Positions 15,223 to 21,167 of a stretch of DNA of 64,000 nt are shown here, in pieces. Each line of letters begins with the position of its first letter. The first letter of the stretch is position 1. This DNA is from an uncultured Dehalococcoidia bacterium (GTDB taxonomy: Bacteria > Chloroflexota > Dehalococcoidia > GIF9 > UBA5629), in assembly GCA_937975645.1 (NCBI GenBank), contig CALJTV010000036.1, positions 39,622-103,621 on the forward strand. The letters are read 5' to 3'. The translations under genes and the position numbers were made by a program. The notes under the pieces were generated by a model. That model had not been told where the DNA came from. It did not search any database and saw nothing but the letters and a program-made list of their open reading frames with translations.

Positions 15223-16230
15223 CTAGCTTGCCTTTGCCTTCACCGCCCTAGCGATGGCATCGGCAAAGCCCTGCAGGAAGTCGGCCTGGTAACGCTCCAC
15301 CCTGCCTTCATCACAGAGCTGAGCTAACTCCGGGTCGATAGGTATCTTTGCCAGCAGGGGCGCACCCGCAAGGTTTGCCATCTCCTCAGCGCGACTCTTG
15401 CCAAAAAGCTCAATCTTTTTGCCAGTCTCAGGTAAAACGAAGTAGCTCATGTTCTCCACAACCCCCAGAATAGGTATATGCATCGCCTCCTGTGCCATCT
15501 TAATCGCCTTGCGCACCACCATCGCTGCCAGCTCCTGGGGGCTAAAGACTATGATCACGCCCGATACCGGTAACGACTGCAACACCGTAAGCGGGGCATC
15601 AGCCGTCCCCGGCGGCAGGTCGACTATCAGATAGTCCAGCCGCCCCCAAAGCACGTCCTCCCAGAACTGCGTAATTGCCTTGGCAATAAGGGGACCCCTC
15701 CAGATGACAGCGTCGTCCTCGTGTGGTAACAACAGGTTTACAGACATGATCTCGATCCCCAGGTGGGTGAGCACCGGCAGCAGTCCGGTCTCGCTCCCCT
15801 CAGGGCGCTCGGCGATACCGAACATCTTGGGTATGCTTGGTCCGGTAATATCGGCATCCAGTATACCGACATCGAACCCAGCCCTTGCTAGCGCCACCGC
15901 CGCCAGACTGCTTACCAGCGACTTTCCCACACCACCTTTGCCGCTCATCACCGCTATGACACTGCCGATCTCGTTCAGCTCCTTAGGCCTCATCTCAGTA
16001 AACTCGACGTTCACCTCACCGACATCGGAAAGCTTCCTCAATATCTCCTGCACTTTAGCCCTAAGCCACTCCTGCGACCCATGGTTCAGCGCCGCCGAGG
16101 CAAGAGATATGTCCACACTCCGGTCACTCACCTCGACACGTCTGACGAGATTAAGGCTTGATACGCTCCGCCTCACCCCGGGCACGAGTACTTCTTCAAG
16201 GCTTTTCAATACCTGGTCTCGGTCTATCAA
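15223..16230 (-). CDS. apbC: Mrp/NBP35 (ApbC) family Fe-S cluster carrier ATPase with N-terminal DUF59-like domain
   Basis: 'VMSGKGGVGKS' is present. The TTG start at 16230 follows GGAGG. Confidence 0.85.
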   Translation of the reverse strand: MIDRDQVLKSLEEVLVPGVRRSVSSLNLVRRVEVSDRSVDISLASAALNHGSQEWLRAKVQEILRKLSDVGEVNVEFTEMRPKELNEIGSVIAVMSGKGGVGKSLVSSLAAVALARAGFDVGILDADITGPSIPKMFGIAERPEGSETGLLPVLTHLGIEIMSVNLLLPHEDDAVIWRGPLIAKAITQFWEDVLWGRLDYLIVDLPPGTADAPLTVLQSLPVSGVIIVFSPQELAAMVVRKAIKMAQEAMHIPILGVVENMSYFVLPETGKKIELFGKSRAEEMANLAGAPLLAKIPIDPELAQLCDEGRVERYQADFLQGFADAIARAVKAKAS

Positions 16231-16736
16231 TGCTTACCTCCGTTCACATAAGTCTTGCGGAAATTGTGCGTCCTCCTGCCCTCAAACGCAAGCTGAAATA
16301 GTCCACCATCGCTCACCATACTTATTTTGTCCCGCCCAAGATGGTGGTCGCTCACCTACAATACCCCCAGACCCTTTAGCACTGGATGTAATTCCACCAG
16401 TACATTATACCGCGCTTTCAAATGGTGAATCATGCAATACAGCAGGACCACATCCATGCTCCCAGACACAAGCCTCGTACGGCAATCGGAAGCAATGGTG
16501 TTAACATTCGTCAACTGTTTTCTGAAAACTAAGCTATTCACTGCTTCAATAGCAAGCGGGTTCCTGTCCATGACATGGGCTCTCCCCCACTTGCCCACCA
16601 GCCTCGAGAAGGGCAGGATATAACTTCCCGGTCTGCAGCCAAAGTCAAGCACCTGGAACCCTTCCTTAATCCCCACCCCCTTAAATAGCTCCATCCGCGG
16701 CAACAGGATGCCCCGGAACTTGTAAGCCAAAGACAT
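16227..16736 (-). pseudogene. Class I SAM-dependent methyltransferase interrupted by an in-frame TAG (16356-16358)
   Basis: The 126-aa ORF ends ...LKGLGVL. After the TAG the same frame reads VSDHHLGRDKISMVSDGGLFQLAFEGRRTHNFRKTYVNGGKH. It ends in a TGA that overlaps the TTG start of the next gene (TTGA). Confidence 0.6.
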
Positions 16737-16853
16737 CAGCCCGAAATGCAGTTTTTGATTCAGGTCACGTCACCACCCTGTTTTCTATCGACACTGTTTA
16801 CCGCCTACAGCCCTACTTAGTCAGCCACCACACAGCATTCTGGTCACCCCGCA

Positions 16854-17192
16854 CTAATGGTCGCAGACGTTCTCACCTATTGCAAGTCTACCGTTTAGGT
16901 AGTTTAGGACAGCCTTATCAGGATCGTTCTCCATTACGCCGATGACCACAGTTATGCGTTTCTGTTGGAATAATGCCTGAGCCCTAGGCCCCATACCACC
17001 CGTCAACACCACCGATACCCCTTGCTCTGCCAACCATACTGGAAGGAAGCCGGGCTGATGCCCGGGCGAATCTACAACCTGCTTTTTCTGGATGGTCTTC
17101 GTTGCTACATCCACATCTATCAGGGCAAACTGCTCACAATGCCCAAAATGGGGCGATAACATACCACCACTTAACGGAATAGCAAATCTCAT
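16854..17192 (-). CDS. NifB/NifX family (dinitrogenase FeMo-cofactor-binding domain-like) protein
   Basis: MRFAIPLSGGMLSPHFGHCEQFALIDVD... is typical of this family. Confidence 0.8.
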   Translation of the reverse strand: MRFAIPLSGGMLSPHFGHCEQFALIDVDVATKTIQKKQVVDSPGHQPGFLPVWLAEQGVSVVLTGGMGPRAQALFQQKRITVVIGVMENDPDKAVLNYLNGRLAIGENVCDH

Positions 17193-17209
17193 CTGTGTAC
17201 CTCCTATGT

Positions 17210-17518
17210 TTACTCCTTTACCCTAAGCCTGTAAACCGGTCTCCCTTCTTCTAGGTAAATATTCACACTCACTTGTTTCCCTTCGGCAAGATAACGTTCA
17301 GCCTCGTCGCGCAACTTCTGTGACTCCGGCGACTTTAGAAAGGTGACTAGCGCCTCGAACCTCTCCTCTAGTTCCCGATTTCCCGCGCCGCCTTGTCTCA
17401 AGAGCTCCAACAGGCAATTGTTCATCTCCTGCTCAGCTAGGCACTTTATACATTTGCCCGGAACATCAGTTGTAGAATATCTCGGGCTAAGGTCTATCAC
17501 TTCCACTGCGGAATTCAC
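17210..17518 (-). CDS. Hypothetical protein, paralog of 10917-11186
   Basis: 102 aa. Its GTG start overlaps the upstream stop (GTGA). Confidence 0.55.
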   Translation of the reverse strand: MNSAVEVIDLSPRYSTTDVPGKCIKCLAEQEMNNCLLELLRQGGAGNRELEERFEALVTFLKSPESQKLRDEAERYLAEGKQVSVNIYLEEGRPVYRLRVKE

Positions 17519-17760
17519 CTCCTTCGGTTCTGGCTACACCCATCTCCCAAGGAGCAGGGTGGTGTATCGCAGCGCTCTGTACTGCCACAACAAGTTGTGC
17601 CCGCTGCCCTTGATCCCGCCTTCACCATATAAGACGCCGAAACCAGCTTCTCCGTCTTCTGGCTACCGCAATCGGGACAGCACACCACTTTACCAGTATC
17701 ACGCATCAGAGACTCAAATATCCTGCCACAATTCTGACATCTAAAGTCGTAGATCGGCAT
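17515..17760 (-). CDS. FmdB-family zinc-ribbon protein
   Basis: MPIYDFRCQNCGRIFE...CPDCGS, with a C-terminal CCG...C..PPC tail. SD AAGGAGG. Confidence 0.8.
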   Translation of the reverse strand: MPIYDFRCQNCGRIFESLMRDTGKVVCCPDCGSQKTEKLVSASYMVKAGSRAAGTTCCGSTERCDTPPCSLGDGCSQNRRR

Positions 17761-18637
17761 GTTTCAAGCCTCCTTGGTATCTATCTAGAGATTCAAAAAT
17801 CCGCTGCCACAGGGACTCTATCTGTCTGACAGTACCATTAGAACAGTTTTCCACCAGCGGAATTCCCCTGGCAATTGATTCGGTAAACGCATCGTCGAAG
17901 GGGATTTTGCCAGCAATAGTCAGCTTCTGACTGTAACAGTACTCCTCAATCTTGCGGCTGTTCTCTTCATTAACATCATATTTGTTGATACACACCAGAG
18001 GGGAGACGCCGAAATGCCGACACACCCCCAGTACCCTCTCCAAATCGTGTATCCCAGAGAGTGTCGGCTCGGTAACCACAAGCGCCAGGTTTGCCCCAGA
18101 CAATGAGGAAATGACCGGACAACCGATCCCAGGGGGACCATCGCTGATTATCAAGTCAAACCTGTCTTTTTGAGCTATCTGCTTTGCCTGCTGCCTGATC
18201 AAAGCTACCAATTTTCCTGAATTCTGCTGCGCTATTCCCAGCCTGGCATGCACCAAAGGACCATAACGGGTGTCCGAAACGAACCAGTGCCCGGAAAGTT
18301 TGTCCTGCATTGTGATCGCTCCCACAGGACAGACATGAAAGCAAAAGCCACAACCCTCACAGGATTTAGCGTCAACTCTAAAATCACGGATAGCCTGGAA
18401 GCGACACAGTTGCTGGCACAAGCCGCACTGCGTGCACTTGTCACCTTCAATGATGGCAATTTGTCCCGTCCAGAACTCGTGGCTTTCGCGTCTGGTCGGC
18501 TGCAGGACAAGGTGCAGGTCGGCAGCATCTACATCGCAATCGCAAAGCACTTCGCTGCTAGCTAGAGCAGCAAAAGAGGCAACAAGGCTAGTCTTGCCAG
18601 TGCCCCCCTTACCGCTTAATACGACCAGTTCCTTCAT
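17741..18637 (-). CDS. MinD/ParA-superfamily P-loop ATPase with inserted 2x[4Fe-4S] ferredoxin domain
   Basis: GKGGTGKTS is present, together with CTQCGLCQQLC and CEGCGFCFHVCP. The start is set at ATG 18637, with GGAGA 8 nt upstream. Confidence 0.8.
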   Translation of the reverse strand: MKELVVLSGKGGTGKTSLVASFAALASSEVLCDCDVDAADLHLVLQPTRRESHEFWTGQIAIIEGDKCTQCGLCQQLCRFQAIRDFRVDAKSCEGCGFCFHVCPVGAITMQDKLSGHWFVSDTRYGPLVHARLGIAQQNSGKLVALIRQQAKQIAQKDRFDLIISDGPPGIGCPVISSLSGANLALVVTEPTLSGIHDLERVLGVCRHFGVSPLVCINKYDVNEENSRKIEEYCYSQKLTIAGKIPFDDAFTESIARGIPLVENCSNGTVRQIESLWQRIFESLDRYQGGLKHADLRL

Positions 18638-19475
18638 GTACCATATCTCCAATCTTATCGAAGAGCTCTATAAAATGCCGCCTCCACTCAGGTAGACCGA
18701 CAACCAGAGGGATGCCCCTGGAGTACAGCCGGGCGATTTCCATGTCGAGCGGAATGGTGAGCAAGATTGGAATACCCTCTTTCTCACAATAGTCCCTGAC
18801 CAGACCATCTTTCATCCCGGCACGGTTGATGACCACACCGCAGGGCACGTCAAACTCCCGCACCATCGACACAGCCAGCACAAGGTCGTTGAGCCCAAAT
18901 AGGGTGGGCTCGGTCACCAACAGACAGAAGTCGCTGCCCTTAACCGCCTCCACCACCGGACAGGATGTCCCCGGCGATACGTCCACGATGACAACTCCAT
19001 CCCGGTTGGCAAACTGCTTCACCTTTCTGATCACCGGCAGTGCCAGCGGCTCACCAACATTGAGTCTGCCGTGAACAAACTCCACCCCGTCTGAATTGCC
19101 CCACTCCACGACGCCGACCTCCCTCCCCACCTCGCTTATCGCCCCCTCTGGGCAAAGGTAACTACAAGCCCCGCAACCATGACATAATTCCGGAAACGTC
19201 AACACATAGCCCGGGACCACCGCAATGGCATGATAGGCACAAACCTGAGCACATTTGCCACAGTAGTTACACTTACCCTTTTCTATCTGGGGAACAGGCA
19301 TACACACGGGTTCTCTCCCGCTTATAGCTGGGTTCAGTAGCAAATGCGCATTGGGCTCCTCGACATCACAGTCAAGAAGCTGCACCCTTGCTTTCTCCTT
19401 CAAGGAGAGGGCAAGACTAGTAGCCATCAAAGTTTTGCCCGTACCCCCCTTGCCACTGGCCACAGCTATAATCAT
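18609..19475 (-). CDS. MinD/ParA-superfamily P-loop ATPase with inserted 2x[4Fe-4S] ferredoxin domain
   Basis: MIIAVASGKGGTGKT is present, together with CNYCGKCAQVC and CHGCGACSYLCP. ATG 19475 overlaps the upstream TGA (ATGA). Confidence 0.8.
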   Translation of the reverse strand: MIIAVASGKGGTGKTLMATSLALSLKEKARVQLLDCDVEEPNAHLLLNPAISGREPVCMPVPQIEKGKCNYCGKCAQVCAYHAIAVVPGYVLTFPELCHGCGACSYLCPEGAISEVGREVGVVEWGNSDGVEFVHGRLNVGEPLALPVIRKVKQFANRDGVVIVDVSPGTSCPVVEAVKGSDFCLLVTEPTLFGLNDLVLAVSMVREFDVPCGVVINRAGMKDGLVRDYCEKEGIPILLTIPLDMEIARLYSRGIPLVVGLPEWRRHFIELFDKIGDMVHEGTGRIKR

Positions 19476-19684
19476 GCTCGGACCATTCTGGTGCCACACT
19501 TGGGGCAGGTCACCTGATGACACGGCGTGCCTGCCTGGTGCGGCACTTTATGACCACAACTGGGACAAACACACTCCCCACCGGGACCAGCACCGGGGCA
19601 GTTGCCACGCTCCCTTTTACCACATCCTCTTCCCGTGCCGGAACCGCTCCCCCATGGCGGTCCCATGCTGTCTCCCCTAGGCAT
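19472..19684 (-). CDS. Small Gly/Arg-rich protein with C-terminal Cys4 zinc ribbon (DUF5320-like N-terminus)
   Basis: MPRGDSMGPPWGSGSGTGRGCGKRERGNCPGAGPGGECVCPSCGHKVPHQAGTPCHQVTCPKCGTRMVRA. The start at ATG 19684 follows GAGGAGGTG. Confidence 0.65.
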   Translation of the reverse strand: MPRGDSMGPPWGSGSGTGRGCGKRERGNCPGAGPGGECVCPSCGHKVPHQAGTPCHQVTCPKCGTRMVRA

Positions 19685-20255
19685 CACTACACCTCCTCTG
19701 TGTCTTATCTCGCTCTTTGCCTTCGCCACCGCTTTCAAGCGTCTTTACCCTCGCTTGGATCTCCTCAAGCTGCTTCGCCAGCAGCTGCGACTGCGCTTTC
19801 AGTGCCGAAAGCTCCTGCTGCAGGCTTTCTGGATTCAACGTCGAACCAGTTGTCCGGCTGCCCCGAGCTACCCATCCCCTACCAGGCATGCTGCCGGTGC
19901 CGAAGTGTGGAAGCACATTGGGCTGTGAACTTGCCTGATGTTTCCCTCTCTTGTAGTCCTGAATAGCATCCCTTATTTTACCGGAGACACCCGTTACCAC
20001 TTCGATACCAGATGAGGACAGCACCTGATAGGCGTTAGGTCCACAGTTCCCGGTGAGCACTGCCTTCACACCCTTCCCGGCAATCATCTGTGCCGCTGCA
20101 ATCCCGGCTCCGCCAGAAGCAGCCGAGCTGGAATTAGCCACAGCCTCGAACTGCAGTGTCTCTAGGTCGACGATGACAAAATATTGGCACCGCCCAAAAC
20201 GAGGGTCCACCTCGCTGTCGAGGCTAGCATCCACAGCCGAAACGGCAACTTTCAT
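19677..20255 (-). CDS. NifB/NifX-family domain fused to a Gly/Arg segment and C-terminal coiled coil
   Basis: The N-terminus is MKVAVSAVDASLDSEVDPRFGRCQYFVIVD... The C-terminus contains LQQELSALKAQSQLLAKQLEEIQARVKTLE. The junction with the upstream gene is TAATG. Confidence 0.75.
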   Translation of the reverse strand: MKVAVSAVDASLDSEVDPRFGRCQYFVIVDLETLQFEAVANSSSAASGGAGIAAAQMIAGKGVKAVLTGNCGPNAYQVLSSSGIEVVTGVSGKIRDAIQDYKRGKHQASSQPNVLPHFGTGSMPGRGWVARGSRTTGSTLNPESLQQELSALKAQSQLLAKQLEEIQARVKTLESGGEGKERDKTQRRCSDA

Positions 20256-20587
20256 TACTTCAACTCCTGGCTCAATTCCTTTACCCTGGCTTCAATCCGC
20301 TCCAGTTCCTCCCTTATCGCCTCTGCCTGCTCCTTTAGATAATTGAGCTCCTCTTCCTTGCTCATCGGCGGAGTGAAAGGGGCATAGCTAGGAAAGGGAC
20401 TGCGGGCATAGCGGGGGGAATAACCAGGCGGATAAGCCCACGGGGCTATACCTCCCCAGCCGAGGAAATAACCGCACCTGGGCAGACCACCCCTGCCTAC
20501 CCCCACAAAGGGCCACGGAGGTGAGGCACCACGGAAGCCAAACCCACAGCCCCTACCGAAGCCAGCACCTCGACCAAATCCATACAT
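20255..20587 (-). CDS. DUF5320-like protein (Gly/Arg/aromatic-rich N-terminus + coiled coil)
   Basis: MYGFGRGAGFGRGCGFGFRG...EEELNYLKEQAEAIREELERIEARVKEL. SD AAGGAGGTGA. Confidence 0.7.
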   Translation of the reverse strand: MYGFGRGAGFGRGCGFGFRGASPPWPFVGVGRGGLPRCGYFLGWGGIAPWAYPPGYSPRYARSPFPSYAPFTPPMSKEEELNYLKEQAEAIREELERIEARVKELSQELK

Positions 20588-20660
20588 ACTATCACCTCCT
20601 TTCCATAAACTTGTGCTTGCTTGTTCCCTAGCTAAATTTCAGCCGAAGTTCTTTGTCTTG

Positions 20661-21167
20661 TTACCATCGCCCCCTACCGCGACACCTCCCCCAACCACCA
20701 CCTACTCTCAGTACCCCCGGCGGCAACGGAATGATACCCGACGTATGGCAGGTAGGGCACACCTGCTGAGGCGCCACCACCAGAGATCCAAACGGTACCT
20801 GCCACTCATGCCCGTTGCCGCAACGGAAGCGCCGTATAATTAGCTCGAAGTTGCCCCCCTCAACCCTTATCGCCTTGCCATTAACCAGCGCATCAGCCAC
20901 CTTGCGCCTCGCCGAATTTAAAATGCGCTGGAAAGTGGGACGAGAGATATTCATCTGCTGAGCACACTCCTCCTGCTCCAGACCTTCTATATCTTTGAGC
21001 CGCAGGGCTTCCAGCTCCTCCACCACCAGATGAACCTCCTCCAGCATGTACAAAGGCACCGCCGTGGGTTTGAAATAGCCCACCCGCGGCAACAAGCCAA
21101 CCTTTCGCCACTTCACCGGCCTCCCCACCAGCCTTTTGTTCTCTTCCATCTCAGAAGTTTTTGGCAT
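20661..21167 (-). CDS. DUF134 (UPF0251) family putative DNA-binding protein with C-terminal Cys4 and GRG tail
   Basis: GRPVKWRKVGLLPRVGYFKP, an HTH-like 'QEECAQQMNISRPTFQRILNSARRKVA', then CGNGH...CPTCH and RVGGGWGRCRGRGRW. Confidence 0.75.
   Translation of the reverse strand: MPKTSEMEENKRLVGRPVKWRKVGLLPRVGYFKPTAVPLYMLEEVHLVVEELEALRLKDIEGLEQEECAQQMNISRPTFQRILNSARRKVADALVNGKAIRVEGGNFELIIRRFRCGNGHEWQVPFGSLVVAPQQVCPTCHTSGIIPLPPGVLRVGGGWGRCRGRGRW

Follow-up and report, generated by a model that had tools for sequence, protein, structure and literature searches.

The window analysed here, a 64,000-nucleotide stretch of DNA from an uncultured Dehalococcoidia bacterium, carries four consecutive genes whose products share a Gly/Arg-rich module: a DUF134 helix-turn-helix (HTH) protein, a 110-amino-acid protein, a NifX-like protein, and a 70-amino-acid Cys-rich protein. 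The modules are real and conserved, are under purifying selection, and are limited to certain families of one gene cluster, and their composition resembles that of the tail of IssA (SipA, PF2025), the thioferrate iron-sulfur storage protein of Pyrococcus furiosus (Vaccaro et al. 2017, PMC5524996). On the strength of these comparisons, we propose with moderate confidence that the four genes are the tagged parts of an iron-sulfur handling operon that is IssA-like and of the orange protein (ORP) type, in which polycationic disordered arms would hold anionic iron-sulfide, coiled coils would make the arms multivalent, and the tagged products would co-assemble.

Window coordinates are used throughout, and all genes of the cluster lie on the minus strand according to the open reading frame (ORF) listing of 16–25 kb. 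The genome to which the window belongs is 1.52 Mb long and 79% complete. A previous reading made from the letters alone (the sequence-only reading) had proposed a shared disordered Gly/Arg element, often with an embedded Cys and paired with similar coiled coils, as a common tag of the four proteins, and all four segments that it quoted were confirmed in the translations at the positions given. The tag is rich in Gly and Arg, among which aromatic or Met residues are interspersed; it contains no acidic residue and is intrinsically disordered. In the DUF134 protein (168 amino acids; 20661–21167), it forms a cationic tail at residues 147–168 (20664–20729) that ends in RVGGGWGRCRGRGRW, and these last 22 amino acids contain 7 Gly, 5 Arg, and no acidic residue, with an isoelectric point (pI) of 12. 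In the 110-amino-acid protein (20255–20587), which runs from MYGFGRGAGFGRGCGFGFRG to EEELNYLKEQAEAIREELERIEARVKEL, the tag lies in the head (residues 1–45; 20453–20587). The NifX-like protein (192 amino acids; 19677–20255) contains it as a linker starting with GTGSMPGRGWVARGSR (residues 114–142; 19830–19916), again with no acidic residue and a pI of 12, ahead of a heptad-like end. The 70-amino-acid protein (19472–19684, with the start ATG at 19684) opens with MPRGDSMGPPWGSGSGTGRGCGK in a Gly/Arg head (residues 1–36; 19577–19684) and closes with a Cys-rich end.

The density of the tripeptide GRG was compared among the families of the cluster, including the stand-alone DUF5320 proteins of A-, B-, and C-type, of which the B-type is the 110-amino-acid family. 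The background in long ORFs of the window's genome is 0.04 GRG per 100 amino acids. The C-type proteins contain 3.5 per 100 amino acids, the B-type and the 70-amino-acid ribbon proteins 2.4 each, the A-type 1.85, the NifX fusions 1.2, and the DUF134 proteins 0.7, concentrated in the tail. Densities of 0–0.16 were obtained for the MinD-ferredoxin ATPases (0.02–0.16), Mrp, the second NifX-like protein, FmdB, and a 102-amino-acid protein. GRG is thus 20 to 90 times as dense as the background in six families, whereas the ATPases and carriers are at or near it, which indicates that the tag is selective for the non-ATPase, non-carrier parts, the putative regulator included. A strict filter, which required ≥6 Gly and ≥3 Arg/Lys within 16 amino acids and allowed no acidic residue there, was passed by 16 of 1680 crude genes of the genome, and the top score was shared by four segments: the DUF134 tail, the head of the 110-amino-acid protein, and two segments in unrelated, unannotated proteins. 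The NifX linker and the 70-amino-acid head of the window fell just under this filter and are weaker copies of the versions found in relatives.

Approximately 100 related loci were examined, 80 of which came from a scan of species-representative genomes with an alignment of the NifX fusion. Most of these 80 loci belong to Dehalococcoidia; others were found in Desulfobacterota, Planctomycetota, Aerophobetes, Acidobacteriota, Stahlbacteria, and one Thermoproteota archaeon. The gene order is strongly kept: DUF134, (C-type), B-type, (A-type), NifX fusion, (FmdB), 70-amino-acid ribbon, and two MinD-ferredoxin ATPases, followed by (FmdB), (102-amino-acid protein), second NifX-like, (methyltransferase), and Mrp. 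Brackets mark families that not all loci have; the methyltransferase is seldom present. Across these loci the tagged segments recur at the same position of the same proteins. The sequence-only reading had held that absence or random placement of the motifs in orthologs would point to compositional drift; the orthologs show neither, and these alignments support a real, conserved, and shared module rather than drift.

The most constrained example is the head of the 110-amino-acid protein. Two family alignments define it as a GFGRG run followed by a nearly invariant GFGFRG-xxPPWP-(Y/F)(V/I)G-x-GRGGLPRCGYF motif, in which G17, F18, R19, P23, P26, G29, R32, G33, G34, and R37 are invariant. Against two close relatives, residues 1–45 differ by 15–16 synonymous and 4–6 nonsynonymous codon changes, making this the most constrained of the three parts of the protein; as synonymous differences exceed nonsynonymous ones, the head is under purifying selection. 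The head is followed by a Pro/Tyr/aromatic-rich linker (residues 46–76; 20360–20452), variable in length and sequence, and by a C-terminal coiled-coil helix (residues 77–110; 20258–20359). AlphaFold2, run on a 33-sequence alignment, predicted residues 1–70 to be disordered (predicted local distance difference test, pLDDT, <50) and residues 77–109 to be helical (pLDDT ~88). The hydrophobic residues of the coil (L81, L84, A88, I91, L95, I98, V102, L105, and L109) have a 3–4 spacing as read from the sequence. A search of solved structures with the family returned generic coiled coils alone, all with E >0.2.

The 110-amino-acid protein was assigned to DUF5320 (PF17253; gathering cut-off, 27 bits) with 34.8 bits, residues 4–105 aligning to profile positions 10–99, its coiled coil falling in the C-terminal part of the match. 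In a six-frame search of the genome, PF17253 matched at three places only, all in the cluster: the 110-amino-acid gene (32.2 bits), the NifX tail, and, weakly, the 70-amino-acid head. The NifX tail reached 23.2 bits (positions 36–99), under the cut-off; because orthologous fusions reach 39–49 bits, the tail module is homologous to DUF5320, with the window's copy scoring below the threshold. The 70-amino-acid head obtained 12.1 bits (E 0.48; positions 1–32), also under the cut-off, and its orthologs 25.8–26.9 bits, at the threshold or barely short of it. The same arrangement was found in 40 related genomes with stronger PF17253 scores, several DUF5320 matches lying side by side on one contig. 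By these profile matches, the 110-amino-acid protein belongs to DUF5320, the Gly/Arg linker and coil of the NifX-like protein make up the C-terminal half of the module, and its N-terminal head is found on the 70-amino-acid protein. In contrast, the DUF134 tail had no PF17253 match in either the protein search or the six-frame genome search, and it falls outside the profile together with the ferredoxin-linked tags described below. The sequence-only reading knew of no described function for such a tag, but three of the four segments are catalogued DUF5320 pieces, and a precedent has been published in the IssA tail (PMC5524996).

The NifX-like protein begins with an IPR003731 domain of the orange-protein/MTH1175 type (residues 1–113; 19917–20255; PF02579, 90.3 bits), whose best solved relatives are ORP 2WFB (1.9e-19) and MTH1175 (3.2e-19). 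In relatives, the linker that follows consists of (GMGR)n, with GMGRGMGRGMG runs of variable length ahead of the coil. The coiled-coil helix of the window's protein spans residues 143–175 (19731–19829). The coil is present in 72 of 80 long NifX-fusion homologs, and in 63 it comes together with a Gly/Arg-rich linker. The coil is homologous to that of the 110-amino-acid protein: in six-frame genome searches, the hidden Markov model of each coil matched its own gene and the other coil alone (reciprocal E values, 5.5e-6 and 3.7e-4; next best, 0.37). Because these matches are reciprocal and exclusive, the two coils are specifically related rather than generic coiled coils, which bears out the proposed pairing of the tags with similar coils; on this evidence, homologous coiled coils of four heptads extend two of the tagged proteins. 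Another small family encoded by relatives joins a Trp/Tyr/Gly/Pro-rich head with almost no Arg (MWPWFGWNPW...YGYGYSPWG) to a similar coiled coil (L028:5338-5550, L047:7302-7499, L069:4411-4596, L074:1137-1340, and L079:7355-7567).

The head of the 70-amino-acid protein (MPRGD..GP..G.G.GTGRG) combines the DUF5320-type N-terminal motif with a Gly/Arg run, and an MPRGDGTG-like head is present in 67/79 homologs. The family consensus is MPRGDGTGP.G.GPGTGRG.GRG...GRMGGNRPGAGP.G.CVCP.CG....H..G.PC....CPKCG..M.R. The remainder of the protein (residues 37–70; 19475–19576), described previously as a Cys4 ribbon, proved to contain 6 Cys and 1 His in the pattern CxCPxC..H..C..CPxC, which is complete in 77/80 homologs. 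In the window, Cys replaces the Arg or other residue of relatives at GRGCG and GNCPG.

The DUF134 protein was identified by PF02001 (87 bits) and by matches to sigma-70 region 4-like HTH domains; it is the first gene of the cluster and likely its regulator. Its tail is a conserved GWGRGRGRG..W motif. Among orthologs with a CPxC motif, GRG, RGR, or GRR follows CPxC in 52/56, and the last 25 residues have a median net charge of +5; such a tail is, for example, PFGWGRGRGRGFRGGRRW, which comes after a shared C..GHEW..VPFE..CPxC extension. This extension, RFRC..GHEW(D/N)VPFE..(17–22 residues)..CPxC, lies between the HTH and the tail at approximately 20730–20850 and is conserved in the DUF134 orthologs of the cluster; with its C..H..CPxC pattern it resembles a zinc ribbon, and it is probably a small zinc-binding module. 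Short DUF134 proteins lack it, among them the Thermococcales-type one, which has 118 amino acids. GRG repeats are missing from the DUF134 tail in L020, L030, L078, and L085, the few loci that have no stand-alone DUF5320 gene of A-, B-, or C-type, and in L085 a coiled coil takes the place of the tail. A contingency count of the DUF134 tail against A/B/C-type genes by a strict regular expression gave 34/0/14/4, a count over related loci in which the expression undercounts. These data hint that the regulator's tag goes together with tagged partners, although the loci are few and related to one another.

Further tag carriers were found in the relatives. They include a ferredoxin domain (2x[4Fe-4S]) fused to a B-type body; ferredoxin followed by (GMGR)n and NPYPFCRFYPWLPRRWW...W; DUF134 with GRG and a coil; NifX-like with GRG and a Cys-rich ribbon; and small C-type proteins composed of a DUF5320 head, (GFGRG)n, and a Trp end. 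The presence of the segment on HTH, NifX-like, Cys-rich ribbon, ferredoxin, and coiled-coil types fits a common tag. The ferredoxin-linked proteins with (GMGR)n have, after the 2x[4Fe-4S] domain and the repeats, a conserved NPYP(F/Y)CR..PWLPR.WW and a terminal Trp (L026:7088-7597, L056:3157-3573, L064:1491-1985, L090:7096-7659, and L094:6869-7561); the window has no such gene.

The nearest described parallel to the tag is the tail of IssA, which has 70 unstructured residues with 15 Gly, 7 cationic and 14 aromatic residues, 11 Pro, one Cys, and a pI of 10.7, and which shows a conserved repeating Trp/Gly/Arg pattern proposed to wrap anionic (FeS2-)n (PMC5524996). The composition of residues 1–76 of the window's 110-amino-acid protein almost matches these values (18 Gly, 7 Arg+Lys, 0 Asp+Glu, 17 aromatic residues, 13 Pro, and a pI of 10.3). 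Common to both systems are the NifX-like IPR003731 domain and, behind it, a Gly/Arg/aromatic segment that is disordered, cationic, and poor in acidic residues and has one Cys. Unlike in IssA, between four and seven separate proteins carry the tag here, and in two of these it leads into a coiled coil. A further uncharacterised clade with Gly-rich tails, IssX, was reported in the same work as IssA (PMC5524996).

IssA-type genes were retrieved by back-translating the first 11 residues given by the IssA cloning primer and scanning metagenome contigs, which yielded nine genes on contigs assumed to be Thermococcales-like. Each product opens with a NifX-like domain and continues with a Pro-rich stretch and (GWGRG)n, followed by GYCPW and, at the end, GWW. 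The following gene encodes a NifX paralogue with a (GMGRG)n...GRGGW tail (L106:2796-3287 and L107:4096-4548), which shares 36% identity with the window's NifX-like protein (4e-22), compared with 28% for the IssA type (3e-8). Two of the contigs also carry a DUF134 protein with an N-terminal Gly/Arg tag that starts with MPRGMGQGWGRGRGRRRK (L106:5635-6123 and L107:752-1108), and FeoB lies near IssA-type genes on the fetched contigs. As tagged NifX-like and tagged DUF134 proteins occur together on IssA-type contigs as well, the association spans Archaea and Bacteria. One IssA-type tail was also matched by a C-type protein in phmmer (1.6e-7), but this match was of low complexity and was not counted as homology.

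By its gene content, the cluster is a Dehalococcoidia version of the ORP gene cluster of anaerobes. In Desulfovibrio, the ORP genes are arranged as orp5-orp4-orp3 and orp7-orp8-orp9, with Orp3 and Orp4 described as MinD-like ATPases with ferredoxin motifs, Orp8 as the orange protein, and Orp9 as MrpORP (PMC6345978, PMC8359166); Orp5 is given as homologous to a small [2Fe-2S]-binding protein (PMC6345978). The window resembles this arrangement in that a gene for a small Cys-rich protein stands ahead of those for two MinD-type ATPases, both of which contain two [4Fe-4S] ferredoxin motifs. It also shares the orange-protein-type NifX domain, with 2WFB as the best solved match (E 1.9e-19), and an Mrp carrier with a NifX-like partner. 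The 70-amino-acid protein corresponds to Orp5 by gene position only, with which its Cys-rich nature also fits. The NCBIfam model of MrpORP (cut-off, 450) scored Mrp at 314 bits and the second NifX-like gene, which is separate here, at 118 bits, so that judged by these scores the two genes appear to amount to a split MrpORP; in Desulfovibrio vulgaris Hildenborough, MrpORP is a fusion of an Mrp/NBP35 and a NifX-like domain. The sigma-54 activator OrpR was not found in 15223–21167, where DUF134 heads the cluster, and the rest of the genome was not searched for it. Stand-alone DUF5320 proteins and Gly/Arg tags are likewise unmentioned in the available portions of the ORP literature.

The iron-sulfur context of the tag rests on the NifX domain being nearest to ORP 2WFB and MTH1175, on the MinD-ferredoxin ATPases and Mrp, on the tag-ferredoxin fusions, and on a Fur gene in Aerophobetes. 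In this context, the resemblance to the IssA tail suggests that the tag probably marks those parts of an orange-protein-type system that assemble around iron sulfide. The polycationic arms would wrap anionic iron-sulfide material, as proposed for the Trp/Gly/Arg tail of IssA, in the form of thioferrate-like chains or other anionic metal-sulfide clusters. The NifX-like domain would make or hold this material, and Mrp and the MinD-ferredoxin ATPases would serve it. The coiled coils would render the arms multivalent, and the tagged proteins, the regulator included, may co-assemble on one protein-mineral particle. Here we infer the ligand, the co-assembly, and the oligomeric state from the likeness to IssA and the company of the tagged genes.

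Several results weigh against this proposal. The binding of thioferrate by the IssA tail is itself a proposal rather than a demonstration. When the published operational criteria of the IssA clade were applied (IPR003731, pI of at least 9, <5 Cys, and at least 20% Gly in the last 40 residues, or at least 10% for IssX; supplement of Vaccaro et al.), the window's NifX-like protein agreed in its domain (PF02579, 90.3 bits) and Cys number (3) but not in its pI (8.8) or terminal Gly (8%), the latter being low because the coil comes last and the Gly-rich segment is internal. Its linker is also a short, degenerate copy relative to those of its relatives. The IssA-type tails did not match PF17253, and BLASTP between an IssA-type tail and a ferredoxin-linked tag gave no significant alignment. 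The likeness lies in composition and in the pattern of the repeats, features that could be common to any binder of polyanions. For DUF5320 itself, a catalogue entry but no functional literature was found. Joint modelling of the NifX-like and 110-amino-acid proteins, an approach put forward in the sequence-only reading, placed the helices in parallel (140–177 against 77–109) in 3/3 runs, but the median score of 0.20 lay under the 0.32 taken as support; we list it here, although it weighs neither way. Given the absent PF17253 match, the lack of tail alignment, and the departures from the IssA definition, the system is better said to work like IssA than to be a member of that family.

A more specific version of the iron-sulfide proposal, which we offer tentatively and consider rather unlikely as a whole, takes the Gly/Arg tag as a client tag for a membrane-less body of protein and iron sulfide. 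The NifX-like protein would be its nucleator and the DUF5320 proteins its matrix, multivalent by their coils, and the small Fe-S protein and the ferredoxin modules would join them. The regulator would be titrated onto the body or would bind the sulfide polymer directly, so that transcription of the operon would report the filling of the store. If this is true, the ORP complex would gain a function, and the cluster would represent a bacterial mineral-protein organelle with built-in feedback.

To our knowledge, the ORP complex of anaerobes has no settled function after 15 years of study, no iron-sulfide storage protein other than IssA has been described, and DUF5320 and DUF134 are widespread families for which we know of no role. 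The locus and its approximately 100 relatives link all four through one type of cationic tag on a regulator, a NifX-like protein, a small Fe-S protein, and coiled-coil matrix proteins, and the same types of tag accompany IssA in archaeal contigs. Cationic tails of the IssA type, a known kind, would thus be spread here as DUF5320 and related modules over an ORP-type operon. This makes the function of ORP, DUF5320, and DUF134 accessible to experiment by way of tail-dependent iron-sulfide binding and co-assembly. It also bears on iron and sulfur storage or trafficking in strict anaerobes such as Dehalococcoidia, which depend heavily on Fe-S and corrinoid enzymes.

Two other explanations are possible, although we judge either of them improbable. 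According to the first, the tags are partner peptides of the two MinD/ParA-family ATPases, in which basic disordered segments and a coil dock on the ATPase dimers, stimulate them, and position or deliver cargo. ParB, MinE, and McdB dock on and stimulate their ATPases in this way, and McdB has a basic disordered region, a coiled coil, and a C-terminal Trp. Consistent with such a role, almost all loci have two deviant-Walker-A MinD-type ATPases after the tagged genes, the 70-amino-acid gene lies directly upstream of both and is coupled to the first by an ATGA junction, and many tags have a terminal Trp. MrpORP is also reported to be polar in Desulfovibrio (PMC6345978). However, no MinD-ferredoxin genes were found in the fetched stretches of the Thermococcales-type IssA contigs, which have tagged NifX and DUF134, and the tag on regulator and ferredoxin domains is left unexplained.

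The second concerns the Cys residues. A single Cys per module (GGLPRCGYF, GRGxGFC, NPYPFCR) could ligate discrete inter-chain Fe-S clusters, two to four Cys being gathered by the coil, and the proteins would then be carriers or scaffolds rather than mineral binders. Cys is indeed conserved in 48/52 members of the 110-amino-acid family, at GGLPRC, and in 42/61 and 29/30 of the A/C-type heads; the conserved motif is predicted to be disordered and may fold on its ligand, Fe-S carrier genes are present in the cluster, and the IssA tail likewise has one Cys. In the GRG runs proper, by contrast, Cys is present in only 1/79 heads of the 70-amino-acid family and 17/56 DUF134 tails, the NifX linker has no Cys, and one Cys per chain requires a defined oligomer. 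The embedded Cys of the sequence-only reading, and with it the idea of a flexible Cys-donating arm, therefore fits some families only, the Cys inside the GRG runs being mostly unconserved, and a general conserved Cys inside these runs was rejected.

A quite doubtful alternative is that the tags are prokaryotic counterparts of RGG or Gly/Arg-rich (GAR) regions that bind nucleic acids or form condensates, with RNA or DNA instead of metal sulfide as the ligand. The G(F/W/M)GRG repeats resemble the pattern of eukaryotic GAR domains, and the RGG/GAR domains of nucleolin, fibrillarin, and FUS are likewise disordered Gly/Arg/aromatic repeats whose multivalency could promote condensation. One of the carriers is an HTH protein, and the 110-amino-acid family joins Arg-rich and Tyr/Pro-rich disordered segments to a multimerising coil. 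Against this, the regulator apart, the conserved cluster has no RNA- or DNA-related gene, all other partner domains bind Fe-S or cofactors, and a methyltransferase occurs in just ~5 of ~100 loci. The tags thus differ from the eukaryotic domains in being prokaryotic, in their metal-cluster context, and in having no RNA-binding domains and no conserved arginine methyltransferase in the cluster, and the likeness does not imply homology.

It is very unlikely, in our estimation, that the Met-rich (GMGR)n of the NifX-like proteins binds soft metals such as Cu(I), or thiomolybdate, in relation to the Mo-Cu sulfide cluster of the orange protein. Met-rich motifs are known Cu(I) binders, the NifX domain is nearest to the Mo/Cu-binding ORP 2WFB, and relatives have up to 14 Met in a 52-residue linker; the window's linker has one Met, the other tags have Phe, Trp, or Tyr in place of Met, and the cluster contains no molybdate or copper genes. 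Finally, neutral low-complexity drift in a GC-rich genome, which could arise by slippage and would accommodate the differing repeat numbers of orthologs, is contradicted already by the conservation data (position kept across phyla, invariant motifs within the segments, synonymous above nonsynonymous changes, and GRG enriched 20- to 90-fold in six families only) and has hardly any probability left.

The remaining genes of the cluster are untagged. The two MinD-type ATPases with inserted 2x[4Fe-4S] ferredoxin domains, Orp3/Orp4-like by CbiA/ParA and Fer4 Pfam matches, occupy 17741–19475. They are followed at 15223–17760 by an FmdB zinc ribbon, the 102-amino-acid protein, the second NifX-like protein, a methyltransferase remnant, and an Mrp/ApbC-type Fe-S carrier, assigned by Pfam and NCBIfam. 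The junctions comprise TAATG, an 8-nucleotide overlap (ATGCCTAG) with GGAGG upstream, and the ATGA into the first ATPase gene, from which the genes are taken to be translationally coupled. The methyltransferase remnant is a class I S-adenosylmethionine methyltransferase fragment (Methyltransf_11) at 16356–16736 on the minus strand, between the second NifX-like gene and Mrp. Because so few loci have a homolog at the corresponding place, it is not part of the cluster core, and methylation of the tag Arg residues by it was rejected as a core feature, the window's copy also having an in-frame stop according to an earlier note.

In the Candidatus Aerophobetes genome, the gene directly upstream of the cluster encodes a Fur-family regulator (PF01475, 122 bits; L046:6234-6680), and the DUF134 gene was not found there. 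Genes of the metallo-beta-lactamase fold adjoin the cluster in two Dehalococcoidia loci (L025:5128-5769 and L031:5015-5656), and one also lies beside the IssA-type pair on one archaeal-type contig (L105:4478-5287).

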